From Actinomycetota bacterium (GTDB lineage Bacteria > Actinomycetota > JAHEXW01): DNA of 64,000 nt. Position 1 is the stretch's first letter; each line of letters begins with the position of its first letter. Location: assembly GCA_041658625.1 (NCBI GenBank), contig JBAZZW010000002.1, positions 538,851 to 602,850 of the forward strand, written 5' to 3'. Positions 4,611 through 62,453 of this stretch are shown piece after piece. The position numbers and the translations under genes are program-made. Under the pieces are notes generated by a model. The model was given only the letters and a program-made list of their open reading frames with translations. It was not told the origin of the DNA and did not search any database.

Positions 4611-4634
4611 GGACACATTCCCGGGAATGTGTCC
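4611..4634. promoter_or_regulatory. 24-bp perfect palindrome GGACACATTCCCGGGAATGTGTCC (copy 1), between arsR-like gene and TadE-like gene
   Basis: Read directly; identical to copy 2 at 5041..5064; candidate operator or RNA hairpin. Confidence 0.5.
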
Positions 4635-4639
4635 GTCGA

Positions 4640-5038
4640 CTAATGGAGATATTTCCTAAAGAGACTGCTAAGGTTGCCTAGCATCACGTCCGTGACCACC
4701 CGACTGTCTTTGTCTTCTATTTCTCTGTTAAAGGAGTGTATTACAAGAAATAGCAGCATTTCATTCCTTAACGACAATCTGACCTTGCGAACTCTATAAT
4801 AGATAAACGATCCCCTGTTTCTATAGGTAACAAATCCGGCTTTGTTCAGGTCGCTTAGATTCCGCGAAACTGTTTTAACAGGCCACCCGCCCCGAATGCT
4901 GATTTCACCAACAGTTAGCGGTCCTGTATTGTTGAGCATTTCAAGTATCTCCAAACGTTTTCTGAAGCCAAGGACTTTGAAAATATTCGCCAAATCATCA
5001 AGTTCGTTCTTCTTTGTCATTTTCTCCTTTGCAAACAT
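4640..5038 (-). CDS. ArsR/SmtB-family transcriptional regulator
   Basis: 132 aa; winged-HTH LEILEMLNNTGPLTVGEISIRGGWPVKTVSRNLSDLNKAGFV; alternative start at ATG 5020 with AGGAG RBS. Confidence 0.8.
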   Translation of the reverse strand: MFAKEKMTKKNELDDLANIFKVLGFRKRLEILEMLNNTGPLTVGEISIRGGWPVKTVSRNLSDLNKAGFVTYRNRGSFIYYRVRKVRLSLRNEMLLFLVIHSFNREIEDKDSRVVTDVMLGNLSSLFRKYLH

Positions 5039-5040
5039 CA

Positions 5041-5064
5041 GGACACATTCCCGGGAATGTGTCC
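5041..5064. promoter_or_regulatory. 24-bp perfect palindrome GGACACATTCCCGGGAATGTGTCC (copy 2), immediately upstream of arsR-like gene
   Basis: Read directly; exact duplicate of 4611..4634. Confidence 0.5.
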
Positions 5065-5070
5065 TTACTT

Positions 5071-5835
5071 TTAAAAACTTACACTTCCGGTGTCTTGGAG
5101 AGAACGTGCAAAAGGCAGTTCGGGGGCCTTCTGCCCGGTTTCATTTATGTTTACGCCACGGAATGAGTTAATCGGGATTTCAAAATAAACAGTTGCCGTT
5201 GAGCCGTCTATCGCGGTGATTTGGACATAGTGCGTGCCTTGACCGCCGAAATCATATTCGCCCCTGGCTGTTATGTTGTTTGATAGTTGCGGATCCGTGA
5301 ATTGTCCAGTCGCCAGCGTAACCGTGTAATGCGATCCGTTTCGATCCTGCCGCCCGACAACAGCGTACACTCGATAAGACTGGATTGGTTTGTTTGCGGA
5401 GAACGCGATATTTAGGTCTAGGTGGGCCGGTTCGTCATTTTGACTCTGCCGGCGCCCGTCTTCTGTTAAATAATGCCAGCGGGTAAAAACATACGGTGGC
5501 GACTTTGCCACAGAAACCGTCACCTGCAACGGTTCTGCCCAATACCCGCTGGCCGCCCACTCTTGATAGGTCTGCCAATATCCGCTTGCAACCCAGGTTG
5601 AATATGGCGCCCAAGCCCAGTAGCTTGTGTCCACCCACGTCCAGTAGCTCTTATCGTGCCATTGCCACCAAGCCCCGACCCAGCCGGCACCAGGGCAATA
5701 CACGTCGCTTCGATGCTTATGATACCCCCATGCATAAGCGAAATACATCGGCCCCCAATTCATGCCAATTAGGGAGTCATCCTGAGGAGCAGAAGAGATG
5801 ACTGGCGACGAGGGAACTCTCACGATTCTACTCAT
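5071..5835 (-). CDS. hypothetical protein with Trp/Tyr-rich repeats (SYW/GYW every ~8 residues) and a C-terminal beta-rich domain
   Basis: 254-aa longest ORF in the region; unusual composition; no family recognised. Confidence 0.4.
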   Translation of the reverse strand: MSRIVRVPSSPVISSAPQDDSLIGMNWGPMYFAYAWGYHKHRSDVYCPGAGWVGAWWQWHDKSYWTWVDTSYWAWAPYSTWVASGYWQTYQEWAASGYWAEPLQVTVSVAKSPPYVFTRWHYLTEDGRRQSQNDEPAHLDLNIAFSANKPIQSYRVYAVVGRQDRNGSHYTVTLATGQFTDPQLSNNITARGEYDFGGQGTHYVQITAIDGSTATVYFEIPINSFRGVNINETGQKAPELPFARSLQDTGSVSF

Positions 5836-6200: not shown

Positions 6201-8945
6201 CTACTTGGGCGGTTTAGCTGCTTTCAGTCGTTGTACGGCCCACTCGTTTGAAAGATCAAGCGATTGGTTTAGCTCGAACGAGGTGTCAGCTCGTTTCTTC
6301 TCAGCATTTCGAACTTCTTTGACGGAATCGTAGAACTGTTTGCCAATCAGACGTTGTTTCTCAATTGGAATTACCGGTACTGGTATTGCTCCAAGATCAT
6401 CCCATTCAACGCGGTGTCTACTAATACCTGTGGATTGAGATAAAAGGCGGGCTCGGACTTCGGGGCTTCGAAGAAATCCCCATAAAAACCAAACATCGAA
6501 TCTTGCGTCCTTAAGTCGCATAATAGTAAACTCCGACGAGGCAATTACACCCGAGAGGTCAGCAGGAATCACGGCAATGGAACCGAGGGCAGCAGCAATG
6601 TTGCTTGCTACAATATCATTTTCTTTTGGGTTTTGAACTTTACTATATGTAAGTTCTTCTCCGAGCGCCTTATCGCCTTCCTCGGGGATTCCGTCATATC
6701 GAACACGCAGTAATGTGTTTAGTTTGCTAGGCTCGTTTTTCGGATTGAAGCCCTCATTTTCAATCTTGTCGACTATTGTGTGTAGGGGAACAACATTAAG
6801 GCCATCGGCACGCCATTTGTCAGAAATGTCATTTGGGCGGGGGAGACACGACTTAACATCAAGACGATCTCCAATAAGGCCGCTCCTGACCCGCCAAGGG
6901 CCCTTTATCCCCTGCATAAAAAGATTAAAAGCCTCAAAAAGGTCCCTAGTTTCGTCTTCAGCTGCGGTACGAGCTTCAGCTGCTTTACTAGGCCGTGTCT
7001 TCATGGGCACATCATCAAGGCCTACGTAGCGACATTCATACATAAAGGCATCCGGCTGACTTTGCTTTTTCGCGTCCCGCCGAATGAGGTATAGGACCGA
7101 TGTCTTTGCACGAGCTCCAACACGTTGAAATGCGTCCCCAGGGATACTGATTACGGCACGAACTATAAAGCGATCCCTTATAAAATCTCGTGCGAAACGA
7201 TTATTTGAGGAACTCAAGATTGAGTCGTCAATTACAGTTACGAGTTTACCGCCTGGCTTAAGAATGTCTGCATATCGTTCTAAGAACATAATGCTCGACT
7301 TTAATGATGGGCGTTGTCTATTTGTTTTCCCAAAGCCAAAGGTCCTTAGAGCGTACTGGTTGAGAATTAAAGCCTCGTCTGGCAGCGTCTCTGAGTAATC
7401 CATCGAGAATGGTGGATTTGTTAGAACGATATCGAAACCTCGTCTGCTTCCATTTGATATTTCGAAAATAAGTTTCTGAAGCTCTTCGAGCTCAAAACGC
7501 GATTGCTGATCATCTCCGACACCATGAGACACTGTCTTATCAAGGCTGTCCGCCGCATATATCCGGCTACCGCCGTCTCCATGGAGATACATGTTGATTC
7601 GTGAAATCTTTGCTAATGGTGGTTCTTTACCTGCATCAATGCCAAATATGGAATCGTTGGCGACCCTTTCTAACAAGGCGTTTTGTTCGCTGTCGCTCAG
7701 AGAAGTGTTAGATCGAATTTGATTCCGCATGTCGGTGAGGGCTTCAATAAGGAAGCCTCCTGAACCACAACAGGCATCAATTACATGGTCAATATGGTCT
7801 TTTGATGCAATTGGGGCAGCGAGTTGTTCCATCATTTTTACAATAGACCTGGGTGTAAAGTATTGCCCCAAGGCTTGTCCCCGCATGGTGGCACTTAAGA
7901 ACGTCTCAAACAAACGACCGTTAAGGTCCTCATCAATGCTGTACAAATCAAGTGATTCTAGTTTCGAGACAACTTGTCTGATTGTTCCTATCTGGAGTTC
8001 AATATGGTCATTTGGCCCAAATATCGGTTTCTTCTTTCCTCGGGCAACGTCCTCTCTAAGAACTTCATTAAGCCTGGCAAAAAGGGTCTCATCAACTGGA
8101 TTCTTTACCCCCTGTGACTGCAGAGCATCAATCCAATGCGTTGAGAAGATAACATTGTCCCGTGGTATTGGTTTCTCGTCTCGTAGTAAAGGCCCCATTA
8201 TGGGGTCATCGTGTAGTTTTCGATCCTCCCAAAGCTTTACGAACATTATTTTTACGAACTCAAAGAAAGCAGGTTGAGGATTCATCTTCTCAGCTTTCCA
8301 TATAAGTCTATGACAGCTGTTAAAAACCCTTTTGATCTCCTCAACAGAAGGCTTTTTCATTAGAAAGCGTGGCTTTTGTATCGAAGGCTTCAGGCCTTGC
8401 CTAATAGTAGTAGCCTGAAGTAACGAGCGTACCGAAAAGAAGCTTATGTTGTCATCAGCAAAGTCGGAAAATTCCAGGCTGATTATAGGCTTGCTCTCAT
8501 CCCATTTATAAAGGTCAAATGCGAGACCATTAGTTATTACGTAGTATGAACAGGGGTTTTGATTGCTAAACTCTTGATTAAGCCCTAACGCATATCCAGC
8601 ACCTTGAAAAGCCCACTTGTCGATATCTTCCCCTGGTGATTTTGCATCGATTAGCCACATAGGCTTCTCGTTACAGTAGATGACGTAATCTGGCCTATAG
8701 CCTTCTTTTTTTCTGCCTCTGGCTACAACAATCTCTTTAAGAGATACCTTTGGCCGGATTTCAGAGTCTTTGTAGCCGAGATCCTTTAGCAAACGATTTA
8801 TAAAGAATGTCTCGACTGAAGACTCATCAACTAAAACCGCTTTATCACAGTATTTGTTTGACTTCGCGTCCTTGCCAGCGCGACTCAAAGAGTCTAGGAG
8901 CGTAGGGCGAAGTAGGTCACTTTGCGGGGTTTTTGACTGTTTCAT
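6201..8945 (-). CDS. single-chain restriction-modification enzyme: PD-(D/E)xK nuclease + gamma-class N6-adenine methyltransferase + HsdS-like target-recognition domain (Type IIG-like)
   Basis: 914 aa; N-terminal RPDYVIYCNE...WLIDAKSPGE nuclease core; MTase motif I VIDACCGSGGFL then motif IV NPPF; C-terminal IPVPVIPIEKQRLI typical of HsdS TRD ends. Confidence 0.75.
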   Translation of the reverse strand: MKQSKTPQSDLLRPTLLDSLSRAGKDAKSNKYCDKAVLVDESSVETFFINRLLKDLGYKDSEIRPKVSLKEIVVARGRKKEGYRPDYVIYCNEKPMWLIDAKSPGEDIDKWAFQGAGYALGLNQEFSNQNPCSYYVITNGLAFDLYKWDESKPIISLEFSDFADDNISFFSVRSLLQATTIRQGLKPSIQKPRFLMKKPSVEEIKRVFNSCHRLIWKAEKMNPQPAFFEFVKIMFVKLWEDRKLHDDPIMGPLLRDEKPIPRDNVIFSTHWIDALQSQGVKNPVDETLFARLNEVLREDVARGKKKPIFGPNDHIELQIGTIRQVVSKLESLDLYSIDEDLNGRLFETFLSATMRGQALGQYFTPRSIVKMMEQLAAPIASKDHIDHVIDACCGSGGFLIEALTDMRNQIRSNTSLSDSEQNALLERVANDSIFGIDAGKEPPLAKISRINMYLHGDGGSRIYAADSLDKTVSHGVGDDQQSRFELEELQKLIFEISNGSRRGFDIVLTNPPFSMDYSETLPDEALILNQYALRTFGFGKTNRQRPSLKSSIMFLERYADILKPGGKLVTVIDDSILSSSNNRFARDFIRDRFIVRAVISIPGDAFQRVGARAKTSVLYLIRRDAKKQSQPDAFMYECRYVGLDDVPMKTRPSKAAEARTAAEDETRDLFEAFNLFMQGIKGPWRVRSGLIGDRLDVKSCLPRPNDISDKWRADGLNVVPLHTIVDKIENEGFNPKNEPSKLNTLLRVRYDGIPEEGDKALGEELTYSKVQNPKENDIVASNIAAALGSIAVIPADLSGVIASSEFTIMRLKDARFDVWFLWGFLRSPEVRARLLSQSTGISRHRVEWDDLGAIPVPVIPIEKQRLIGKQFYDSVKEVRNAEKKRADTSFELNQSLDLSNEWAVQRLKAAKPPK

Positions 8946-9354
8946 GTGTTCATTATCATTTGACGGAAGAACTGCGTCAAGGTTCGGCCAAACACTGTCC
9001 TATATAGCGGTCAAGTGACAGACAACTAGACAACCCATTGCTAGGCGCATTGTTCATAGAAAAGGTCAGCCAAGTAAGTTATTTAATTTCTATCTAATAA
9101 GCCATGGCAAAACCTCATCACTCTTCGGTAATCATAGAGAATGTTCGAAGACGCTCCGGCGGCCGCTGTCGCGTCACTGTAAAGTGTCAACAGAAACGGG
9201 GGAACTCCAACTCCAGTTTGTTGTTTATTGTAGCCGAGTGGGCTACGAGTCTTCTTCAAAAGAATATTCCATATACATAGCGTTTCCTCAGCTCTTGAGG
9301 TTTAGCACTTGAAAGTACATAATGAACCTAATCTTGTCTACTGGGGAGTTAATT

Positions 9355-11817
9355 ATGCCTTTGAAGATTAAGCTTAAGAATCAGTTTCGTGAGCCCCTCA
9401 ATACGGATGCGGGTTTCGTCGGTCGTGAAGACGAATTGGCGCGACTCATTACGATATTTCAGCAGAGGCAAGCCGCAACAGTCCTAGTCGCTGGACATCG
9501 AGGGGTAGGCAAGAGCGCACTGGTTGACGAGGCCTTAAAACGCTCGCAAGCCGACAAGAAAAAGCGCGTAGTTGCTCGATTGACGTTGCCCCATCTATCG
9601 CCCGGTAGTTCGGATATTCGAGATCAAATACTTCAATCGCTGGCGCGCTCGCTATATTTCTCTATCAAAGACGACAATAGCGTTCCAAAACCTCTTCGCG
9701 AAGTCAGCAAGGTTCTATATGATAAGACCTATTTGAAGGAACTACACGAGCAGACTGGGGTCGAGTCATTATTCGAAACCGAAGCTAAAGCCCGATCAGC
9801 GACAAAGACAAAGACTTCAATCGCTTTTGGCAAGATAGTTTCACTTATTGTCGGAACGTCGCTCTCTGGTGTGGTTGCTATCGGAGGAATCGCGGTTATT
9901 TCGAGAATCGTTACGGATCATGGCCTGAGTTGGGGAATAGTGGCTAGCGCTGTCGTGTTGGTTACGGTTGTGCTTTCAGCTTATCAACTTAATCTCGAAA
10001 AAGAGGATGAGAATACGACTATTGACAAGGCAACGGCTTCTAACAAGATAAACCGAATCGGTCTTTACGACGTATCTCCCGAGACCCTTGAATTTGAGCT
10101 TCGCGATCTTATAAAGGAGCTTGCAGCTAAAGGTCATCCTTGTGTCTTCGTGATTGACGAACTTGATAAGCTAGAGGCTTTTCCCAAAGGCGTTCAGCAG
10201 GACCCTGAAAGCGCTGGGCAGGATTTTAAAAAACACATCATATTCAGGATTTTGTCCAGTTTGAAAAACTTCTTTACATTGGGTTCTGGAATATTTGTGT
10301 TTATTTCAGGGGAAGATTTCTACGCCCAACTAAATGGACCCATTGAAACAGACATCTATTCGTTAGCTCATACCTTGTTCACTGATCAGGTTTTTGTTCA
10401 GGTTCTCTACTATCAGGACGTGGAGCGCTTGATTGAGCAGATTATTGCCGAAACGCCTGCGGACGAGGAGGAGTACCATCGCTTCAGGAACTATTTGTGT
10501 TGGCGCTCTCGAAATCATGTGTTTGATCTCTTATCACTCATCGGGGAATTTGTCAGATTTGATAATCGAGGCCAGCCATTTCTTTGGGGAGAGAAATCAG
10601 GAGCTCAGGACGGGCATTGGCATGAAGGCAATCTACCGACGAACTGGGAAGTTGCTGCTGCTCTGCAGAAAATAGTGGGGGCCGCTTATGATGAATCGGC
10701 GAGGCCGTCTGCTGGAGAGCAGCGTTTCAATCAAGCATTGTGGCTTACCCAACTGCGAACGGCCTATGATCTGTTCGCTGATATGCCCGTGAAGGTGCCA
10801 GAGGCTGGTTTTGAGTTGCCTGCTGCTTATGCCTGGGTAAAGAATCTAACGCCAAACGATCTTGATGACCTTGCTGGCGCAGTCGAGCGTCTGCTGGCTA
10901 AACTTGAGAGGTATGGTGCGGTAAGAGTAGTCTCGGAGACACTCACTCCCGAGACAGAAGGCCAGCCCGATGTCTCTGTGACTAGCTATACACTAGTTGA
11001 AAACCCACCTTATCCGCCCACGTCAGTCAACTCTGAAGTACAAAGAATCCCACTTGAGGATTATTATCTCGATATCGGGGCGAAAGCGGAGCACCTCGCA
11101 AAGAATCTATCCGTCTTGGGCATTGAGACACCGCAGTTATCCGATGAAATCAACGCTGTCGTCGATCTAATACTCGCAGTCAAGAACATTTCGCCACGAA
11201 ACACAGTACCGAGAAGCAGGGTCAAAGAAGGAATTAAACGAGCAGACGTTCTTGCCGAACAGATGGTCGAGACCGGCGTTAATGCAGTTATTACAAAATG
11301 GGCGGCGGATCACGGGATGCAGCTTAGTCAGGCACTTTCAGAAATTGAAAACAAAACTGGCACGCCCTGGCAAGACTCGCTTACCAGTGAGTTCCCAGAG
11401 TTTGTTGAGGCTTTGGACATAAGCGAGGTTGAATACTTCATCATCGGAGGTTCAACTTCCGAGAACCAGGTTTTAGTGCTGAATAATCGACGAGATCGTG
11501 ATTTGACGGCAGTAAGCGAGGCTTATTCAAAATCCTTGCCTGGTGAAAAGGGTCGCGATAGACGGAAACAACGTCTTCCGATAGTTGTAGTGAGCCAGTT
11601 GTCTCCCGGCAAAAATCCTCAGATTCCACGCGAAGTCGTTGAGGTTATCCAAGAAACCGAAGGTTGGTCTTTCTTCTCTGCCGTACTTGGACTTTTACCG
11701 AAAACGAAGAGAGTCAAAACGAATCTGGCAGGATGGACTGTCTTTTCTCTCGATCCTAGCTTGGATAATTTGGAAGACCTACCAGCTGAACTAGAAACGG
11801 TCTCATACATTACATAG
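9355..11817 (+). CDS. KAP-family-like P-loop NTPase with two TM helices inserted between Walker A and Walker B; ~550-aa uncharacterised C-terminal region
   Basis: Walker A VLVAGHRGVGKSAL (about 9484-9510), two hydrophobic helices (about 9814-9997), Walker B CVFVIDELDKLE (about 10135-10170). Start taken at ATG 9355 (GGGGAG RBS) rather than track start 9322. Confidence 0.65.
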   Translation: MPLKIKLKNQFREPLNTDAGFVGREDELARLITIFQQRQAATVLVAGHRGVGKSALVDEALKRSQADKKKRVVARLTLPHLSPGSSDIRDQILQSLARSLYFSIKDDNSVPKPLREVSKVLYDKTYLKELHEQTGVESLFETEAKARSATKTKTSIAFGKIVSLIVGTSLSGVVAIGGIAVISRIVTDHGLSWGIVASAVVLVTVVLSAYQLNLEKEDENTTIDKATASNKINRIGLYDVSPETLEFELRDLIKELAAKGHPCVFVIDELDKLEAFPKGVQQDPESAGQDFKKHIIFRILSSLKNFFTLGSGIFVFISGEDFYAQLNGPIETDIYSLAHTLFTDQVFVQVLYYQDVERLIEQIIAETPADEEEYHRFRNYLCWRSRNHVFDLLSLIGEFVRFDNRGQPFLWGEKSGAQDGHWHEGNLPTNWEVAAALQKIVGAAYDESARPSAGEQRFNQALWLTQLRTAYDLFADMPVKVPEAGFELPAAYAWVKNLTPNDLDDLAGAVERLLAKLERYGAVRVVSETLTPETEGQPDVSVTSYTLVENPPYPPTSVNSEVQRIPLEDYYLDIGAKAEHLAKNLSVLGIETPQLSDEINAVVDLILAVKNISPRNTVPRSRVKEGIKRADVLAEQMVETGVNAVITKWAADHGMQLSQALSEIENKTGTPWQDSLTSEFPEFVEALDISEVEYFIIGGSTSENQVLVLNNRRDRDLTAVSEAYSKSLPGEKGRDRRKQRLPIVVVSQLSPGKNPQIPREVVEVIQETEGWSFFSAVLGLLPKTKRVKTNLAGWTVFSLDPSLDNLEDLPAELETVSYIT

Positions 11818-12059: not shown

Positions 12060-12161
12060 CATCTCACCTGGGCAACAGATGATGATTTCTTTAATTGACA
12101 AGGTATTATCTGGGGCAATCTAATACTCATCTAATATTGATTGTCGCCGACAAGGAAGGCA

Positions 12162-13028
12162 ATGATATACAAAGGCTTGTACTCTCAGCGCAAGAAAATA
12201 AACCCTGATGAAGATGTTTTTTCATATTCGCTCCCTGCCCCAGTAAGAGCTGCAATATTTAATATTATTAAAAACACCAATCCGAATTGGTCATCTCACG
12301 GCAAAACCCGAAGGCCTTTAAAGGCCATTGTTAAGGATTTTTGTGAAAATCATTTATTTCACGGGATTACACCAAGAGCAGAAGACGCTTTTGCATCTGG
12401 GTACCAATACGCCGACCACCAACTTACCGATGACCTTAAGGCATGGATCCAAACGACTCCACAAGAATCTTTGTTTGATTTTATTGAAGTAGCAATTATT
12501 AATATGAGCGAGTCTAATTTAACGACGCTTGTTAAAGATATTAATGATTTGTTTCAAAGGGAAATGATTGGATTTGAGATTGTAAACGGAAACATTATTG
12601 ACAAGTCTGATGAATTCCTTCATCAAGAAGTTGTTCTGCAGCCAATTCTTGGGCTAAAAGCAGGAGGATTTGAAAAAGCCGAACAAGACTTCATGAAGGC
12701 ATTGCAGGAATATGCCCACAAAGATTATGCGGGAGCCCTTACAAGTGCTAATACTGCGCAGGAAAGCGTTATGAAGAGGATTCTTGGAGTCGAAAAAGGT
12801 GTGTCAAGTGATTTGGTTAAGACATTAGTTGAAAGGGGCATAATCCCTTCATATATGCAGAATAAAATGTTACTGCCCGTTTCGATAAGAAACAAAGATA
12901 GCGACGCACACGGCAGGCTTGATCCAATTGACGTCACGCCGGAACTAGCTCAATACGCGATTCATTGTGTCGGGGCTAATGTTGTGTTCTTGCTCAAAGT
13001 TACGAATATGGACGGCACCCAACAATAG
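12162..13028 (+). CDS. hypothetical protein with C-terminal HEPN-like Rx6H motif (candidate abortive-infection/RNase-type effector)
   Basis: ATG 12162 preceded by AAGGAAGG RBS (track start 12141 is TTG); C-terminal SIRNKDSDAHGRLD fits the HEPN Rx4-6H motif; AT-rich gene. Confidence 0.45.
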   Translation: MIYKGLYSQRKKINPDEDVFSYSLPAPVRAAIFNIIKNTNPNWSSHGKTRRPLKAIVKDFCENHLFHGITPRAEDAFASGYQYADHQLTDDLKAWIQTTPQESLFDFIEVAIINMSESNLTTLVKDINDLFQREMIGFEIVNGNIIDKSDEFLHQEVVLQPILGLKAGGFEKAEQDFMKALQEYAHKDYAGALTSANTAQESVMKRILGVEKGVSSDLVKTLVERGIIPSYMQNKMLLPVSIRNKDSDAHGRLDPIDVTPELAQYAIHCVGANVVFLLKVTNMDGTQQ

Positions 13029-53745: not shown

Positions 53746-53845
53746 GTTTCACAGTATATTCACAAACGGTTCACGGGATATTCTTGTGAGCCCTTGATAA
53801 TGGGCATTAGAGGTAGCCAAGGCTACCCCGCCCATCAGACAAAAG

Positions 53846-53886
53846 AAAAAGAGCAGGATAACAGACCACCTGCTCTTTTTCTTTTA
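53846..53886 (+). terminator. rho-independent terminator candidate after UbiA-family gene
   Basis: AAAAAGAGCAGG / CCTGCTCTTTTT inverted repeat with 12-nt loop, followed by CTTTT. Confidence 0.5.
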
Positions 53887-53955
53887 GCTGAAACTCCTAC
53901 TATGATACAATCATTACAAACATTTCGACCTTACCCGAATATCGAGAGACGGCAA

Positions 53956-56172
53956 ATGCCAAAAGTCAGTATAGTCATAACGTGTCATAACCATGGACGG
54001 TTTTTACCATTTGCGATAAAGAGCGCGATCTCGCAGACATATAAGGACTTTGAAGTTATTGCCGTGGATGATGGGTCCACCGACAATACAGCCGCTGTTT
54101 TAGTGAAATATGAAAACGACCCGCGATTCACAATAATACACCAGGAAAGAAAAGGACCTGCGTCGGCTCGTAACCTCGCCATTGAGCAGGCAAACGGCGA
54201 TTTCATCCTGCCCCTGGACGCAGACGATATTATAGAAAAGAACATGCTCGAAGAAACCGTGCCGGTTCTGGAGAAGAATCCAGATCTTGGTGTTGCATAC
54301 ACCCAATGGAAGACTTTTGGCGATGTCATCAAATTGGTTTTGCCAATCGAGTACAACTTTTTGGTCCTCGCCTATCATGCCAACTTCATTCCCGGGTGCT
54401 CGCTTTATCGTAAACAAGCCTGGAAAGAAGCTGGCGGATACAACACTGATATGGAATATGGAGGTGAGGCCTGGGATCTATTTGTCAGAATGGGCGAAAA
54501 AGGTTGGTGTGGTGGGTTAGTGTCTAAGACACTATTAATGACTAGAATCCATTCAGAATCAATGCAGGGTTTATCTGACAAGCATAAACAAGACATAATC
54601 AACCAGGTTGTCGCGAATAACAAAGACGTATACTCAAAGAATGTCGAAGCGAAAGACTGGTTTGAGGCAAAGCAACTAGCCCGTGAAAACAGATATCCAT
54701 TTTCTGATGTACCAATACCCGAGCTTAACGATGTATTAATAAAAAACTTGGCTTGGCCGAAACCTGCGAGTGCTCCAAAGGTCAGCATTATTATCCCCTG
54801 TTATAACCAGGCCGACCTGCTTGATGAGGCAGTTAATAGCGCTCTATGCCAAACCTATCAGTCGTTTGAGATCGTGATCGTCAATGACGGCTCAACGGAT
54901 AACATTGGTGAAGCGCTAAAGAAACATGCAAATAATCCAAAAATACATATCATCAACCAGGAGAATCAAGGAGTGGCAAGTGCAAGAAACAATGCAATTC
55001 TGACAGCTGGGGGCGAGTATATTTTGCCTCTTGATGCCGACGATATGATTGAACCTACATACCTCGAAAAGACAGTTGCCTCCCTCGACGCAGAAGAAAA
55101 AGCTGGAATTGCGTATACATACATTAAGTTCTTTGGCAACGCAGAAAGAGAAATACAACAAATTGACTTTGATTTCATGGTTCTGGCCTATCATGGTAAT
55201 TTTATGACATGCACATCTTTGTTTAGAAAGACAGCCTGGGAAGATGCGGGTGGCTATAACCCAAACATGAGGTATGGATATGAAGATTGGGATCTATGGC
55301 TTGGAATTTCCGAACGGGGTTGGGGTGTTACATTTGTGAAGGAACCACTGATCCACTATCGCCAGACTGAAACATCCAGGTCTGATGAAGCACACAGACA
55401 TCTCCCTGAGCTATACCGCCAGCTGATTGCGAATCACCCTATCACGTACGCTCAACCTCTTGCCGAGAAGAAATGGCTACGCTTTGTGAAACAGGTTAGT
55501 GATGAGACGCGTTTTCCTATCGGAAATGCGACATCTCCATGTTTTCAGACCTATATAGATAACATCATTTTTGAACCAGTCGACAAGCCGGATGTAAGCG
55601 TCATCATCACTTGCGATCACCGTGCCAATACAATTATGGAGAGTGTCAGGAGCATCCTTTTCCAGGATTACCGCAGCTTCGAGATAATAATCGTTGATCT
55701 AGGAATAGCTGGAGACGCTAAGGGTGAGCTTGAAAAGCTAAAAGCAAATCCACGTGTTGCGATCATTGATGCGACTTTTTCGAGAGACTTGATATCATCT
55801 ACCAGCAAAGCAGTTTCAGGAGCGCGAGGTAAGTATATATTGATGCTGAGTAATGGTGATGTAGTACACAAAACATTGCTTAGTAAAGCAACGCGAGAGT
55901 TCAATAAAAGAACCAAACTAGGCATTGTCTATGCGAATGAACAAGAACGCAATGGAGAAGAGGCTGCAAGAAAAATCCAGTATAGCTACGCTGCCCTAAA
56001 GCGCCAAAATTATATTGGGCGACACGCAGTTTTTAGCAAGCATGCCTGGCTGGAAGCGGGCGGCTTTAAGAAGGAGACTCTGAATCCTGACATTCTATGG
56101 GGCCTATGGCTAAGAATGGGCGACCTTGGCTGGGCGGGGAAATTGATTGATGAACCCCTGGTGCTTCAATAA
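53956..56172 (+). CDS. multi-domain family 2 glycosyltransferase (three tandem GT-A domains)
   Basis: Start at ATG 53956 (MPKVSIVITCHNHGRFL), downstream of the terminator; GT2 signatures at SIVITCHN...VIAVDDGSTD, SIIIPCYN...IVIVNDGSTD and SVIITCDH...IIIVDLG. Confidence 0.8.
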   Translation: MPKVSIVITCHNHGRFLPFAIKSAISQTYKDFEVIAVDDGSTDNTAAVLVKYENDPRFTIIHQERKGPASARNLAIEQANGDFILPLDADDIIEKNMLEETVPVLEKNPDLGVAYTQWKTFGDVIKLVLPIEYNFLVLAYHANFIPGCSLYRKQAWKEAGGYNTDMEYGGEAWDLFVRMGEKGWCGGLVSKTLLMTRIHSESMQGLSDKHKQDIINQVVANNKDVYSKNVEAKDWFEAKQLARENRYPFSDVPIPELNDVLIKNLAWPKPASAPKVSIIIPCYNQADLLDEAVNSALCQTYQSFEIVIVNDGSTDNIGEALKKHANNPKIHIINQENQGVASARNNAILTAGGEYILPLDADDMIEPTYLEKTVASLDAEEKAGIAYTYIKFFGNAEREIQQIDFDFMVLAYHGNFMTCTSLFRKTAWEDAGGYNPNMRYGYEDWDLWLGISERGWGVTFVKEPLIHYRQTETSRSDEAHRHLPELYRQLIANHPITYAQPLAEKKWLRFVKQVSDETRFPIGNATSPCFQTYIDNIIFEPVDKPDVSVIITCDHRANTIMESVRSILFQDYRSFEIIIVDLGIAGDAKGELEKLKANPRVAIIDATFSRDLISSTSKAVSGARGKYILMLSNGDVVHKTLLSKATREFNKRTKLGIVYANEQERNGEEAARKIQYSYAALKRQNYIGRHAVFSKHAWLEAGGFKKETLNPDILWGLWLRMGDLGWAGKLIDEPLVLQ

Positions 56173-56175
56173 CTA

Positions 56176-56838
56176 TTACTTTCGTACTTTTCGTGCAACA
56201 ATGCAGGCTACAGCTTGGACATAGCCATTTGAAACAGAATCAATATCGAGCAAGTCTGTTTTTGTTGCCGGAATCCAGTGGAGCCTTTCTAGGCCTTTAA
56301 AATACTTTTCTTTTTCTATTGTGAATCCATCAAGCAACGATACCAGCGCTTCATCGTCATATACTCTATACCAACTTGATTGCATCCTTCTCCCAAACGG
56401 GATAGTCAGAATGAACATACCATCGTTTGTTAAAACTCGGCTTATCTCTTGAACTACCTTAAAGTCACCATTGCTAAGAGGCTCTTCTCCATAGGCGCCA
56501 AGTCCGCAGTGCTCAATTGCTGAAACTGCACTTACAACGTCGAAAGAACCGCTTTGAAAGGAGTCTTTCAGAAAATCGCCTTTTACGAATTCGAAGTTTG
56601 GATGCTTAAGATCGTAATCTGTTAAGTCAACTCCTACTACTCTATGCCCCAGACTTGCTAGTTCAATAGGAAGTCGGCTTCTAGCGCAACCAAAGTCAAG
56701 AATCCGCAATTCCTGATTGCTCGGAATATTTTGAAAAACGAATGGAATCTCGACAATTCTTTCATTTGTAAGAAGTTGATCTGAAGGACCATCGTAATAT
56801 ATTGACTCTTCAAAAAGGGATTTTAGGTCTTTATCCAT
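56176..56838 (-). CDS. class I SAM-dependent methyltransferase
   Basis: 220 aa; motif I ILDFGCARSRLPIELASLGHRVVGVD. Confidence 0.75.
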   Translation of the reverse strand: MDKDLKSLFEESIYYDGPSDQLLTNERIVEIPFVFQNIPSNQELRILDFGCARSRLPIELASLGHRVVGVDLTDYDLKHPNFEFVKGDFLKDSFQSGSFDVVSAVSAIEHCGLGAYGEEPLSNGDFKVVQEISRVLTNDGMFILTIPFGRRMQSSWYRVYDDEALVSLLDGFTIEKEKYFKGLERLHWIPATKTDLLDIDSVSNGYVQAVACIVARKVRK

Positions 56839-56958
56839 GCTCCAAACTTAATATAGCAAACAGTGGCTGTCAACATAGCTTGTAAGAAATGTTACTTTTA
56901 TGGATAATTGAAAGTAATTTCATGTCAGCGCGTTGATCTCTTTATTTGGGTATGTTCA

Positions 56959-59355
56959 ATGACGAGAAAAGGAAAAAAGAGGCTAAATCTTGGGTGTGGG
57001 CCGGATATCAGAGAGGGCTTTATAAATGTTGACGCACGGTCACTTCCCGGCGTCGATCTAGTTTCTGATGTAAGGAAGCTGCCTTTCCCTAAATCAAGTA
57101 TTTCGGAAATTGTCGCTATCGATGTACTTGAACATTTGTCTAGACTTGAAGCGCCTGAGGCGCTTAGATATTGGGTTTCACTTCTAACCAAAGAAGGATC
57201 GATCTTTGTTCAATCACCAGATATCCGATTGCTAGCAGAGGTTATTGAAGATGACGATGAGCTTTCGCGAAGACTATACGGGGATCAGGATTATCCCGAG
57301 AATCTCCATAAAAGTGGGTTCACTTTATCGCGTCTTAGGGAATTATTAGAAGCTGAAGGCTTGAAGATCGTAAAAGGAACTTATATTAATGGGAATTTTA
57401 GAATTTGGGCTACCTATCCACGCTCAAGAATAAAAAAATGTCTTTGTCTCGGCAAAACCGATCCATACCCATCAGGTCAGATTCCAGATGAAACGCTAAT
57501 AGTTGAAGGACTAAAAGATAATGGGATCGATGTTGATTTCTATGATTATAAAGATTTCGACCCAGAATTAACTGATATCTACGATTTTGCACTACTAATT
57601 TATCATTACGACATTCCTCTTCAAGGGTATCGTTATCTTCTGGATCAAGTCGTTGCTGACAAGACCGCACTAATGACATTTGACTGGGTTCTATCTGAGG
57701 CGAGAAGAACTGGGTTTCTAGAGGTGGCGAGACTCTTCGACATTGTTTTTACAACAGACGATGTTGTTGACTGGCGTTCCTTGGGAGTGAACCAGGCAAC
57801 AATTCGACAAGGAGTTAGTTCACCTCATAAGCGCGGTCACAAGAGAAACGATCTCGATTTTGATATAGCGTTCATCGGCGGCCTAAATGACTCAAGCAGG
57901 GTTGAAAACCTTAGAACGATTATGAAGAAATATAAGGTCGCTCATTTTGATAATCAGGTAAATCAAGAATTTAGTTCCATCTATATGGGGCCTGCTCACA
58001 ATGAAAGGTTCTGTGATATATGCAGTTCAGCAAAAATCATTCTGGGCGGCGGTTTCCCTGAAACTACGAAGGGTTACTGGTCAAATCGTGTTTACATGGT
58101 CCTTGGATGTGGGGGATTCTTCCTTTCGCCATATGTTGAAGGTATGGAGAGCGAATTTGAAGATAAAAAGCACCTGGTTTTTTTTCGCTCAGAATCTGAA
58201 CTAGAAAAGAATGTTCAGTACTATCTAAAGAATGATGCCGAAAGGGAAAACATAGCTAGAAACGGAAGAGCGCTTGTGCATCAAGAGTATTCATACAAAA
58301 AGCGAACTAGAAGTTTGGTTAAAGAGATAAACGAAATGCGGCGCAAAATCGGTCTTGTGTCATACACTGAACGACAAAGCGGATTAGGCATTATGGCAAA
58401 TGAGCTAGTTGACAGCTTGAATATAACAAACATCCTATCGATAGACTCTGCCAAGGGGAAACGAGAAACTTGGAGAGAAAACCAAGTTAATGCCAACAAT
58501 CCACCGGATCAAGAATCCATATTTGAGTTTTTGTCACAGAATTTTAAGGTCCTACTCTTGCTGGAGACGCCGTTTAATCAACATATTCCGTATGTGGCAA
58601 AAAAAGCAGGCAAAAAGGTAGTCTGCTATGTTCACCATGAGTGGTTGCCACTAGATGCACCGTGGCTGCAATACGTTGATCTATTCTTGTGTCCAAATAG
58701 TATTGCCGAAGAGAAAATGAATAGTTATGTAAGAAAACAAGTCAATTGGCCAATCAATCTTTCCCAATATGAGTTTAAAAAAAGAGAGGGTCATGTCTTT
58801 ATACATAATGCTGGATATATTGGACCCTTTAATAGAAAAGGAACAGCTGATGTAATACAAGCTTTCTGTGCATCAAAGGCAGGAAAGCTGATTCTAAGAA
58901 GCCAAATCCCTCTAGAACAAGAGATTGATTTGGATCTTGTAAAAATGGCAAGAGATGATAGTCGTATAGATATCAGAATTGGCGCGCTTGATAACTATCA
59001 GGACTTGTTTAGCGAAGGTGACATTGCGTTACAGCCTAGCCGTTTTGAAGGATATGGGAGAGCAATAGCTGAGGCTATGGCTTCAGGCTTGGTAGTTGTA
59101 ACAACAGATGCTCCACCCATGAAGGACTTTGTCGGAGATTCTAAGCTTCTAGTCAAAGTGTCTTCAGAACAACCATTAAGATCCGGCCCATTTGACGCTA
59201 TATCATATGTACCAGACATAGATTCGATGACAGAGATAATTGATTCTTTGTCAAGATCAAGTGATATTGGAAAGTTTAGTCTCGAGGCCAGAGAGAGAAT
59301 TGAGTCAGGATATAGCCGGTGGGACAAAATAATTGAAATACTACAAAATGTCTAG
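56959..59355 (+). CDS. fusion protein: N-terminal SAM-dependent methyltransferase + central and C-terminal glycosyltransferase (GT1/GT4-like) domains
   Basis: Start at ATG 56959 (MTRKGKKRLNLGCGPD); MTase motif LNLGCGPD...AIDVLEHL; C-terminal EGYGRAIAEAMASGLVVVTTD typical of GT4. Confidence 0.7.
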   Translation: MTRKGKKRLNLGCGPDIREGFINVDARSLPGVDLVSDVRKLPFPKSSISEIVAIDVLEHLSRLEAPEALRYWVSLLTKEGSIFVQSPDIRLLAEVIEDDDELSRRLYGDQDYPENLHKSGFTLSRLRELLEAEGLKIVKGTYINGNFRIWATYPRSRIKKCLCLGKTDPYPSGQIPDETLIVEGLKDNGIDVDFYDYKDFDPELTDIYDFALLIYHYDIPLQGYRYLLDQVVADKTALMTFDWVLSEARRTGFLEVARLFDIVFTTDDVVDWRSLGVNQATIRQGVSSPHKRGHKRNDLDFDIAFIGGLNDSSRVENLRTIMKKYKVAHFDNQVNQEFSSIYMGPAHNERFCDICSSAKIILGGGFPETTKGYWSNRVYMVLGCGGFFLSPYVEGMESEFEDKKHLVFFRSESELEKNVQYYLKNDAERENIARNGRALVHQEYSYKKRTRSLVKEINEMRRKIGLVSYTERQSGLGIMANELVDSLNITNILSIDSAKGKRETWRENQVNANNPPDQESIFEFLSQNFKVLLLLETPFNQHIPYVAKKAGKKVVCYVHHEWLPLDAPWLQYVDLFLCPNSIAEEKMNSYVRKQVNWPINLSQYEFKKREGHVFIHNAGYIGPFNRKGTADVIQAFCASKAGKLILRSQIPLEQEIDLDLVKMARDDSRIDIRIGALDNYQDLFSEGDIALQPSRFEGYGRAIAEAMASGLVVVTTDAPPMKDFVGDSKLLVKVSSEQPLRSGPFDAISYVPDIDSMTEIIDSLSRSSDIGKFSLEARERIESGYSRWDKIIEILQNV

Positions 59356-61202: not shown

Positions 61203-62453
61203 ATGCAATGCTGTAAAAAGGAGACGCGCGTGCCTAAGCATTATATAGAACGAACAATTGAGCCTTTACTGTTGCGATCGTCGCAAGAGTCACCCGCCAT
61301 CGTTCTGACCGGCCCCAGACAGTCAGGCAAAACGACGCTCCTTAAGCATGTCTTCTCCAAAACTCATCGATATATTTCCCTTGATCTGCCGGACGTCGCA
61401 GCGTCGGCGACCGCCGACCCGCGAGGTTTCCTCGATATAAATCGTCCGCCGGTAATCTTCGACGAGATCCAGTATGTACCCGGACTCCTTCCTTATATAA
61501 AAGAGCTTGTCGACGCAGACAGGCAGAGTATGGGCCGGTTCATTCTTACGGGTTCACAGAACTTGATGTTGCTCAACAGCGTGACCGAGACTCTAGCCGG
61601 GCGAGCCGCACTCTTGCGTCTCCTGCCTCTCTCATATAACGAGGCGCTCGGTCGTCCGTTGACTTCTCTGCCGTGGGAGTCGAAAAAGAGCCATGAGATC
61701 TTGCCTGAGCTTACGCATTCCAACCTCTACCAGAAGCTCATCATCGGGTCTTTTCCGGAACTCGTTGCCACTCCTAAATCCGATCCGACAATCTGGCAAG
61801 GCAGCTATATCCAAACATATCTTGAACGCGACGTGAGAAGCTTAAGACATATCGGCGATTTGTCGACCTTCCAGAACTTCTTGCGGGTCATCGCAGCGCG
61901 CTCGGGTCAGCTGTTCCAGCTTGCTGATGTATCTCGCGACCTGGGTGTCGCTTTCAACACGGCTAAGCAATGGCTCTCCATTCTGGAAGCCACCTACCAG
62001 GTCGTGGTCGTACGACCGTATTTCGAGAACGTAGGTAAACGGCTTGTCAAAACGCCGAAGGTTTACTACCTCGATACAGGGCTCTTGGCATATCTAGCGC
62101 AGATACGCGACGCGGATCAAGCATCTACAGGCCCTTTCAGCGGTGCGTTCTTTGAGACTGCGGTCTTGGCCGAGCTTACCAAGAGCTATGTTCACAGAGG
62201 GAAAGAGGCCCGGATCTTCTTCTGGCGCACAGCGGCCGGCAAAGAAGTCGATTTCGTGATAGAGGTCGGCGGGACATTGATTCCGATTGAGGTCAAAGCA
62301 TCAGCAACCCCGCGCCCAGAGATGACGACTGGCTTGCGTTCATTTATGGAAGACTACAGCCCTAGGGCAAACAAAGGTTATGTCGTACACCCGGGCAATA
62401 TCCGACTACCGCTCGCGCCGGACATCGAAGCCTTACCGTTCGCCCTTCTGTGA
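61203..62453 (+). CDS. AAA+ ATPase with C-terminal DUF4143-like domain
   Basis: 416 aa; Walker A LTGPRQSGKTTLL, Walker B VIFDEIQ, C-terminal region typical of this ATPase family. Confidence 0.7.
   Translation: MQCCKKETRVPKHYIERTIEPLLLRSSQESPAIVLTGPRQSGKTTLLKHVFSKTHRYISLDLPDVAASATADPRGFLDINRPPVIFDEIQYVPGLLPYIKELVDADRQSMGRFILTGSQNLMLLNSVTETLAGRAALLRLLPLSYNEALGRPLTSLPWESKKSHEILPELTHSNLYQKLIIGSFPELVATPKSDPTIWQGSYIQTYLERDVRSLRHIGDLSTFQNFLRVIAARSGQLFQLADVSRDLGVAFNTAKQWLSILEATYQVVVVRPYFENVGKRLVKTPKVYYLDTGLLAYLAQIRDADQASTGPFSGAFFETAVLAELTKSYVHRGKEARIFFWRTAAGKEVDFVIEVGGTLIPIEVKASATPRPEMTTGLRSFMEDYSPRANKGYVVHPGNIRLPLAPDIEALPFALL

Follow-up and report, generated by a model that had tools for sequence, protein, structure and literature searches.

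A 914-residue protein uniting an HsdR-N-type nuclease, a gamma-class methylase and one HsdS-like target recognition domain is probably a self-sufficient, HaeIV-like restriction-modification enzyme

One open reading frame in a 64,000-nucleotide stretch of an Actinomycetota bacterium contig (the whole of which we call the window) encodes an R-M-S fusion protein in which a PD-(D/E)xK nuclease, a gamma-class N6-adenine DNA methyltransferase and a Type I-like target recognition domain (TRD) lie on a single 914-residue chain. The catalytic motifs are intact and conserved, there is no motor, and no partner gene recurs beside the gene or its homologues. We are confident that the protein is an autonomous one-chain restriction-modification (R-M) enzyme. 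The fuller account that we favor, held less firmly but still as the probable one, is that it is a self-sufficient enzyme of the Type IIB/IIC/IIG kind that resembles HaeIV, including a dimeric mode of action with cleavage on two sides. By analogy with described enzymes, the protein would form a homodimer, recognize a symmetric site and cut on both sides of it.

The ORF is real and intact (Table 1), and a database search showed that an identical protein is already public under the name “MAG: N-6 DNA methylase [Actinomycetota bacterium]”. A protein database search returned more than 2458 homologues, and relatives are encoded at at least 580 places in a species-representative genome collection that spans bacteria and archaea. 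Conservation was assessed in an alignment of 35 sequences with 46-65% identity to the window protein; given the invariance of the catalytic residues there and the number of homologues, the observation goes far beyond chance. The AlphaFold model of the protein has a mean pLDDT of 85.8 and a pTM of 0.75. The promoter-like site just upstream of the gene might give rise to a leaderless mRNA; the call is weak because such sites are no more numerous in this region than in shuffled sequence.

Table 1. Features of the R-M-S gene and its product; coordinates are those of the window, residues those of the 914-residue protein.
Feature	Coordinates	Strand	Basis
Complete CDS, 914-aa R-M-S fusion protein, stop codon included	6201..8945	minus	ORF list and translation, ATG start
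N-terminal PD-(D/E)xK nuclease domain, HsdR-N type, residues about 41-160	8466..8825	minus	Pfam, family profile, model
Nuclease catalytic core P85-D86 ... D100-A-K102	8640..8693	minus	35-sequence alignment and BsaXI alignment
Helical connector, nuclease to methylase, residues about 161-335	7941..8465	minus	AlphaFold helices; aligns with BsaXI RM subunit
Gamma-class N6-adenine DNA methyltransferase domain, residues about 336-640	7026..7940	minus	
Methylase motif I DACCGSGGF (AdoMet binding), residues 390-398	7752..7778	minus	Motif scan
Methylase motif IV NPPF (catalytic), residues 510-513	7407..7418	minus	Invariant in 35/35 sequences
Long post-methylase helix, residues 652-677	6915..6992	minus	AlphaFold model
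Single Type I HsdS-like target recognition domain, residues about 717-860	6366..6797	minus	
PVPVIPIEKQ (residues 855-864) and conserved-region-like 36-residue helix (861-896)	6258..6383	minus	HsdS alignment; AlphaFold model
Promoter-like TTGACG-17-GATAAT, 6 nt ahead of ATG	8952..8980	minus	Consensus scan

The initial annotation had described the N-terminal region as an HsdR-N-like PD-(D/E)xK nuclease core, and profile searches agree. The whole protein scores 24.1 bits against the Pfam model HSDR_N_2, just below its cut-off of 25, and the N-terminal 161 residues alone pass the cut-offs of both HSDR_N_2 (29.2 bits, cut-off 25) and HSDR_N (26.8 bits, cut-off 25.1), as do other members of the family (29 of 33 match HSDR_N_2 and 27 of 33 match HSDR_N). 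A profile built from the family gave weak matches in the PDB to the nuclease domains of BsaXI, BpuSI and HsdR (E values from 0.0085 to 0.15), and the domain is modeled with a pLDDT of about 90. Its core consists of R-P-D-Y at residues 84-88 and I-D-A-K at 99-102; none of the 35 aligned sequences departs from D86 or K102, and all of them have D or E at position 100. By both sequence and fold, the best match to the protein is the RM subunit of BsaXI, which covers residues 25-626 (nuclease, connector and methylase) at about 22% identity, and in this alignment D86, D100 and K102 fall on BsaXI D90, E105 and K107, each of which is required for cleavage according to mutagenesis (PMC11997821). BsaXI needs four catalytic residues, of which the window protein matches these three; the fourth, E73, cannot be matched unambiguously in the pairwise alignment, where E62, E71 and E81 are candidates.

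The methylase assignment of the initial annotation, which had cited motifs I and IV, is likewise well founded, with Pfam matches to N6_Mtase (E value 1.4e-28) and Eco57I (33.2 bits) that both exceed the cut-offs. The motifs run in the order X (GQYFTPR, residues 360-366), I and IV, and D390 and G394 of motif I are invariant across the alignment. We propose that the long helix that follows the methylase may be the counterpart of the C-terminal tail helix of HsdM, which packs on the conserved-region helices of the S subunit; the analogy is drawn from M2S complexes (PMC11997821).

The C-terminal part contains one TRD followed by one long helix, as indicated by profiles, the structure model and fold comparison, and no second S-like sequence was found in the window or in the 90 sources searched. 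The Pfam model Methylase_S matches the TRD below its cut-off. The PxPxIPxxEQ-type motif that the initial annotation had pointed out as HsdS-like is present as PVPVIPIEKQ, which aligns with HsdS IPLPPLEEQRRI. We propose that the helix beginning within this motif could be a dimerization helix, as such helices are dimerization elements in HsdS and half-HsdS proteins (PMC6158711). The TRD is not hypervariable: its identity between family members tracks that of the methylase (r = 0.70), unlike in families that diversify by swapping TRDs.

A different way to read this architecture, and the strongest of the alternatives although we consider it unlikely, is that the protein is a monomeric Type IIG or IIL enzyme like MmeI or BpuSI, whose one TRD would recognize a contiguous asymmetric site and which would methylate only one strand and cleave at a fixed distance to one side. 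MmeI, BpuSI and DrdV have the same domain order, a similar length and one TRD, and they cut on one side of contiguous asymmetric sites, but they match the window protein more weakly than BsaXI does in both fold and sequence. Apart from one weak match to MmeI_N, no Pfam model of the MmeI family was found, and with the whole protein there was none at E<=0.01. Moreover, the TRD has the HsdS-type “IPxPPxxEQ” junction and then a 36-residue helix of the sort that is a dimerization element elsewhere (PMC6158711).

In the HaeIV-like account that we favor, two chains would pair through the C-terminal helix, probably together with the post-methylase helix, and would thereby recreate an assembly equivalent to an (RM)2S complex like that of BsaXI. 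The dimer would recognize a symmetric bipartite site composed of two identical inverted half-sites separated by a few unspecified bases, and methylation of one adenine in each half-site, with AdoMet, would protect the DNA of the host.

If the nuclease were inactive or vestigial, the protein would instead be a solitary methyltransferase that regulates epigenetically or shields DNA from other restriction systems. The names given to the family point in this direction, since public records go no further than “N-6 DNA methylase” or “type I restriction enzyme M protein” and the best PADLOC models for the protein are methyltransferase models. The catalytic residues of the nuclease are, however, retained without exception in sequences that are only 46-65% identical to the window protein, and the nuclease is as conserved as the rest of the chain: mean identity in the alignment is 55% in the nuclease, 63% in the methylase and 49% in the TRD. 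Together, these observations argue for selection on catalysis and make a solitary methyltransferase improbable. Because the family is labeled as methylase despite a conserved nuclease and a TRD of its own, censuses of defense systems that rely on labels would miscount its members as orphan methylases.

No helicase or motor domain was detected in the protein with Pfam and NCBIfam models, no hsdR, hsdS or helicase gene was detected among the 19 ORFs of the window scanned against Pfam, and unbiased clustering of the ORFs that flank homologues at 80 genome loci recovered no HsdR, HsdS or helicase; transposases were the only recurring neighbor families. It is therefore highly improbable that the protein is part of a multi-gene system, either a Type I or MADS-like one with distant partners or a pair with the AAA_16/STAND-like ATPase gene at 9322-11817: such a reading could draw on sub-threshold NCBIfam matches to MADS MAD2 (182.8 bits) and MAD5 and on the position of the ATPase gene, which is divergent from the R-M-S gene and merely 376 bp away, but the MAD2 score is far under the cut-off of 720, relatives on transposons carry the R-M-S gene alone, and in organisms other than the source, none of 87 loci with a homologue has the ATPase, the AbiJ-like gene or the 254-aa ORF of the window nearby.

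Several specific memberships were rejected. A Type I system or a fragment of one does not fit, as there is no SF2 motor, hsdR and hsdS are not among the neighbors, and the hsdM model TIGR00497 yields 37 bits, short of its cut-off of 242.75. MADS was rejected on the MAD2 score given above, on a MAD5 score of 27.5 bits against a cut-off of 400 and on neighbors that are not mad genes; BREX PglX on a BREX_1_MTaseX score of 14.9 bits against a cut-off of 500 and on the absence of brx genes nearby; and Type ISP (LlaGI/LlaBIII) on the absence of a RecA-like ATPase motor from the chain. Membership of the MmeI family (Type IIL) was rejected because its Pfam models do not match the whole protein and the fold scores are lower, although an MmeI-like mechanism stands as the alternative considered above. 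A functional tie to the AAA_16 ATPase, the AbiJ-like gene or the 254-aa ORF was also rejected, as these accompany the gene only in contigs of the source organism.

These results bear out the central proposal of the initial annotation, that a single polypeptide holds an entire R-M enzyme: profiles and a confident structure model place nuclease, methylase and TRD in one chain, and the accompanying statement on missing genes and domains holds as well, since the protein lacks a helicase and hsdR and hsdS partners are absent both from the window and from the surroundings of 87 homologous loci. The two findings named in advance as capable of overturning it, an N-terminal region that is not a nuclease and a protein that is a fragment of a multi-subunit Type I system, were not obtained, given the profile matches, the alignment with the mutagenized residues of BsaXI and the lack of a recurring partner. 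With every domain element confirmed, the description as a Type IIG-like enzyme with a Type I-like specificity domain is supported. What the initial annotation omitted is that an R~gammaM~one-TRD architecture has already been described for HaeIV; the window enzyme is less unusual than was implied, because HaeIV is written “2R~gammaM~[GAY]” (PMC3874165). The window enzyme is an ordinary, uncharacterized member of a known self-contained R-M class.

The closest relatives of the gene are carried, as the only large cargo, by IS5-like (SWIM) transposons that end in GGCTTTGC inverted repeats and duplicate 9 bp of their target. At seven or more loci, inverted repeats bound a transposon whose sole large cargo is the R-M-S gene, accompanied by a small regulator-like ORF, and the target duplications were seen at six of these loci. 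The transposase of these elements has an N-terminal SWIM zinc finger, and the elements occur in Acidobacteriota, Chloroflexota, Alphaproteobacteria, Planctomycetota and Bathyarchaeia. In the elements examined, a small gene of the RHH, HTH or zinc-ribbon type also faces the R-M-S gene, in the manner of a controller protein. Other clades of the family lie inside IS1595 elements and also beside an IS6-like transposase. Since such a transposon unit moves without a separate methylase, the R-M-S enzyme must protect the host by itself.

The window gene sits in an island of low GC content, with unrelated defense-type genes as neighbors, and probably was acquired horizontally, since other members of its clade ride IS5-like transposons; it would mark a small, horizontally acquired defense island. 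A tblastn search with the transposases of the relatives found no transposase remnants in the window. Matches to the transposon ends, GGCTTTGCACAA, with two or fewer mismatches were at chance level and absent from the flanks of the gene. There is no tRNA gene in the window that might have served as an integration site and no small controller-like ORF in the 376-bp intergenic region upstream of the gene. A plausible but tentative reading, which we hold with clearly less confidence than the HaeIV-like account, is that a minimal R-M-S enzyme has repeatedly been recruited as a passenger of IS-type transposons and that the window copy is an immobilized descendant. If so, the passenger enzyme possibly stabilizes or defends its element. 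We found no description of an R-M-S gene as a passenger of IS5 or IS1595 elements in a limited search of the literature.

With a single TRD in 914 residues, such an enzyme is the smallest complete form of the Type I/IIB design. It would be a convenient model of the choice that one chain makes between methylating and cleaving DNA, and it might yield new Type IIB specificities for methods of the 2b-RAD type.

Several described systems share parts of this design. The closest solved relative, the RM subunit of the two-chain Type IIB enzyme BsaXI ((RM)2S; PDB 8w0p, 8w2p and 8w2q), works with a separate two-TRD S subunit and itself carries a C-terminal “paddle”, whereas the window protein has a fused single TRD and a helix. 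The single-chain Type IIB RMS enzymes AloI, TstI, PpiI and CjeI resemble the window protein in having nuclease, gamma-class methylase and Type I-like S region on one chain and in lacking a motor, but they are about 1250 aa long, are arranged as TRD1-CR1-TRD2-CR2 and recognize asymmetric bipartite sites (PMC3874165; PMC11997821); the window protein, at 914 aa, has a single TRD followed by one helix. In Type I half-HsdS proteins and M-half-S fusions (engineered constructs of EcoR124I-NT and of S. aureus), one TRD and one conserved-region helix are likewise combined with an HsdM-like methylase, either by fusion or by binding, and they dimerize and read symmetric sites (PMC6158711; PMC2877798). 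They restrict through a separate HsdR motor-nuclease, whereas the window protein lacks a motor and carries its fused nuclease at its own N-terminus. In architecture, the nearest described enzyme is the single-chain Type IIB/IIG enzyme HaeIV from Haemophilus aegyptius, a likeness that we draw from its published description (PMC3874165 Table 4; PMC4081073): one chain in which a nuclease at the N-terminus is joined to a gamma-class methylase and to one specificity domain, with, like the window enzyme, no separate methylase or S subunit and no motor (PMC3874165; PMC4081073). HaeIV is a dimer in solution, reads GAY N5 RTC and cuts on both sides (PMC3874165; PMC4081073; PMC3177199). The homodimer, the symmetric bipartite site and the two-sided cut that are known for HaeIV are the properties that the window protein would be predicted to share.

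The R-M-S gene is a single uninterrupted ORF (6201..8945, minus strand) that, according to the window's ORF listing and translation, begins with ATG and encodes 914 aa, and every motif named in the initial annotation could be located in this protein (see table). On the whole protein, the Pfam profile HSDR_N_2 scored 24.1 bits, slightly below its cut-off of 25, while the isolated N-terminal domain (161 aa) scored above the cut-off with both HSDR_N_2 (29.2) and HSDR_N (26.8); these profiles matched 29 and 27, respectively, of 33 family members. An alignment of 35 sequences that share 46-65% identity with the window protein shows no variation at E41, D86 or K102, and only D or E at position 100. 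Pairwise alignment with the RM subunit of BsaXI, the closest solved relative, places D86, D100 and K102 on BsaXI D90, E105 and K107, which, together with E73, are needed for cleavage according to alanine mutagenesis (PMC11997821); the counterpart of E73 is ambiguous, with E62, E71 and E81 as candidates. That the protein is an orphan methylase with an inactive nuclease is improbable, because the catalytic residues are invariant.

The C-terminal region scored 15.9 with Pfam Methylase_S, below the cut-off of 22. PADLOC Specificity_I profiles (up to 6.4e-14 across residues 717-881) and matches to the HsdS chains 5ybb_D and 3okg (up to 1.4e-9, with the query aligning to both TRD1 and TRD2 of each) support its assignment as a specificity domain. 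In an AlphaFold model (pLDDT 85.8, pTM 0.75), a beta-rich target recognition domain (TRD, 717-860) leads into a helix of 36 residues (861-896), and a second long helix (652-677) lies directly after the methylase. The protein contains one TRD, not two, and no further S-like sequence is present in the window. The TRD was recognisable in all 88 family comparisons and is not hypervariable, and its identity (mean 40%) follows that of the methylase (mean 54%; r = 0.70), so TRD swapping does not seem to be how this family diversifies.

To survey possible partners, we collected 80 homologous loci from species-representative genomes and 7 further contexts, and clustered the flanking ORFs. The ORF families seen in at least five loci comprised transposases or recombinases, one small ORF of actinobacteria lying downstream of the R-M-S gene, ABC-ATPase-like ORFs, and spurious reading frames that overlap either the R-M-S gene itself or the near-identical elements of Collinsella. 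None of the families recurring beside the gene at these loci was an HsdR, HsdS or helicase, and the window's ATPase, AbiJ-like and other neighbour genes adjoin no other R-M-S homologue, which marks the R-M-S gene as a stand-alone unit. The possibility, raised at the outset, that the protein is a fragment of a multi-subunit system was checked in this way and not borne out.

Of the seven closest relatives whose context is known, six (loci L004, L006, L008, L009, L023 and L025, 55-65% identity; L012 is the exception) adjoin a divergent transposase of ~415-435 aa that combines a SWIM finger at its N-terminus with an IS5-like DDE domain, and the same arrangement occurs in the more distant L018, L027 and L050. 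Inverted repeats starting GGCTTTGC enclose the transposase and R-M-S genes in at least seven loci, and 9-bp direct target duplications were found in six of eight examined, indicating that the two genes moved as one element. These elements are 4.4-5.6 kb long, carry the R-M-S gene as their only large cargo, and occur in Acidobacteriota, Chloroflexota, Alphaproteobacteria, Planctomycetota and Bathyarchaeia. All nine examined encode, between transposase and enzyme and pointing at the enzyme gene, a small protein that, varying with the locus, looks on inspection RHH-like, HTH-like or similar to a zinc ribbon of ~35 aa (C.RCG..W.PR...P.VCP.CKS.YW). These proteins resemble controller proteins and may control expression; GTAGCTAC palindromes occur in several of these intergenic regions.

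In ten further loci, representing a more distant clade of the family, the R-M-S gene is directly preceded on the same strand by an IS1595 transposase. Terminal inverted repeats of 24-34 nt surround both genes in all four elements examined, and in Collinsella aerofaciens whole 4.16-kb contigs consist of the element. At an archaeal locus, the transposase is IS6-like, carries a SWIM finger and lies downstream of the R-M-S gene. We tentatively suggest that a one-gene R-M enzyme has repeatedly been captured as a transposon passenger.

Features of the R-M-S protein, the window and homologous loci in other genomes (L handles; locus-internal coordinates)
Feature	Location	Strand	Remarks
Motif R-P-D-Y	residues 84-88		R-M-S protein
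Motif I-D-A-K	residues 99-102		R-M-S protein
Motif GQYFTPR	residues 360-366		R-M-S protein
Motif DACCGSGGF	residues 390-398		R-M-S protein
Motif NPPF	residues 510-513		R-M-S protein
Motif PVPVIPIEKQ	residues 855-864		R-M-S protein
ArsR-type regulator gene	4640-5038		
254-aa ORF	5071-5835	-	directly downstream of R-M-S gene; N-terminal part Trp/Tyr-rich
AAA_16 / STAND-like ATPase	9322-11817	+	831 aa; divergent from R-M-S gene; ~500 C-terminal residues uncharacterised
AbiJ-like / STM4504-family protein	12141-13028	+	AbiJ_NTD4, DUF7014
IS5-like element	L004 6385-10805		
IS5-like element	L009 4129-8920		
IS5-like element	L018 5207-10807		
IS5-like element	L023 6433-10799		
IS5-like element	L025 6397-10760		
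IS5-like element	L027 5924-10868		
IS5-like element	L050 6404-11036		
Small upstream gene	L004 7810-8001		
Small upstream gene	L023, L025 about 7800-8000		
Small upstream gene	L008, L009 upstream of 6001		
Small upstream gene	L006 7473-7577		
Small upstream gene	L027 7774-7893		
Small upstream gene	L050 7826-7921		
Small upstream gene	L010, L014, L028, L038		
IS1595 element	L057 1-4165		
IS1595 element	L068 6618-10781		
IS1595 element	L041 6931-10805		
IS1595 element	L086 6903-10770		
IS6-like transposase	L011 8979-10226		archaeal locus

A neighbour-joining tree places the window protein amid transposon-borne copies. The window contains no transposase, GGCTTTGC repeat or small upstream ORF, its R-M-S copy lacks the 9-bp target duplication, and the stretch holding the R-M-S gene has a GC content of 0.45 versus ~0.55; the window copy is therefore best seen as horizontally acquired and now immobile. 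Together with the ATPase and AbiJ-like genes it forms a small defence-type island of GC 0.45, flanked, along with its neighbours, by Memo and DprA genes on one side and pilus genes on the other. The 254-aa ORF had no match in Pfam, NCBIfam or PADLOC, and tblastn located it nowhere but in contigs of the source organism. Two copies of a perfect 24-nt palindrome, GGACACATTCCCGGGAATGTGTCC, directly flank the ArsR-type gene, one on each side (4611-4634 and 5041-5064), and may represent operators or terminator hairpins. A hairpin (GTAGCC-cactc-GGCTAC, 9228-9248) in the intergenic space between the R-M-S and divergent ATPase genes loosely resembles the GTAGCTAC palindromes of transposon-borne relatives, probably by coincidence. 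Elsewhere in the window, the large ORFs that were scanned encode housekeeping proteins or glycosyltransferases. GC content is low a second time, at 0.41-0.44, in 53794-59355, where two genes encode very large glycosyltransferases with multiple domains (792 and 815 aa); a DUF4143 / AAA_14 ATPase gene follows (61203-62453).

The chief practical point is that the R-M-S family is systematically under-annotated. The identical protein in public databases is named 'MAG: N-6 DNA methylase [Actinomycetota bacterium]', and NCBI, PGAP and JGI records label family members, including plasmid copies in Aeromicrobium and Gordonia, only as 'N-6 DNA methylase' or 'type I restriction enzyme M protein', labels that omit the conserved nuclease domain and TRD.

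Our data support the single-polypeptide reading proposed in the initial annotation: nuclease, methylase and one TRD were confirmed in one chain, with neither motor nor partner, and the protein is very probably an autonomous R-M enzyme. The same layout is already in the literature for HaeIV, tabulated as '2R~gammaM~[GAY]' (PMC3874165), which forms a dimer in solution and cleaves one side after the other (PMC3177199). Half-HsdS proteins, like engineered M-half-S fusions, dimerise and recognise symmetric sites (PMC6158711). By analogy, the R-M-S protein may well work in a HaeIV-like dimeric mode, in which two chains would pair via helix 861-896, probably along with helix 652-677, in imitation of the four-helix bundle of M2S complexes. 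Such a dimer would recognise two identical, inverted half-sites, methylate one adenine in each, and cut unmodified DNA on both sides with no need for ATP. HaeIV and the R-M-S protein are alike in layout, although the dimer is known for HaeIV and only inferred for the R-M-S protein, and since the architecture is already known, the window enzyme is an uncharacterised addition to it and not a separate type.
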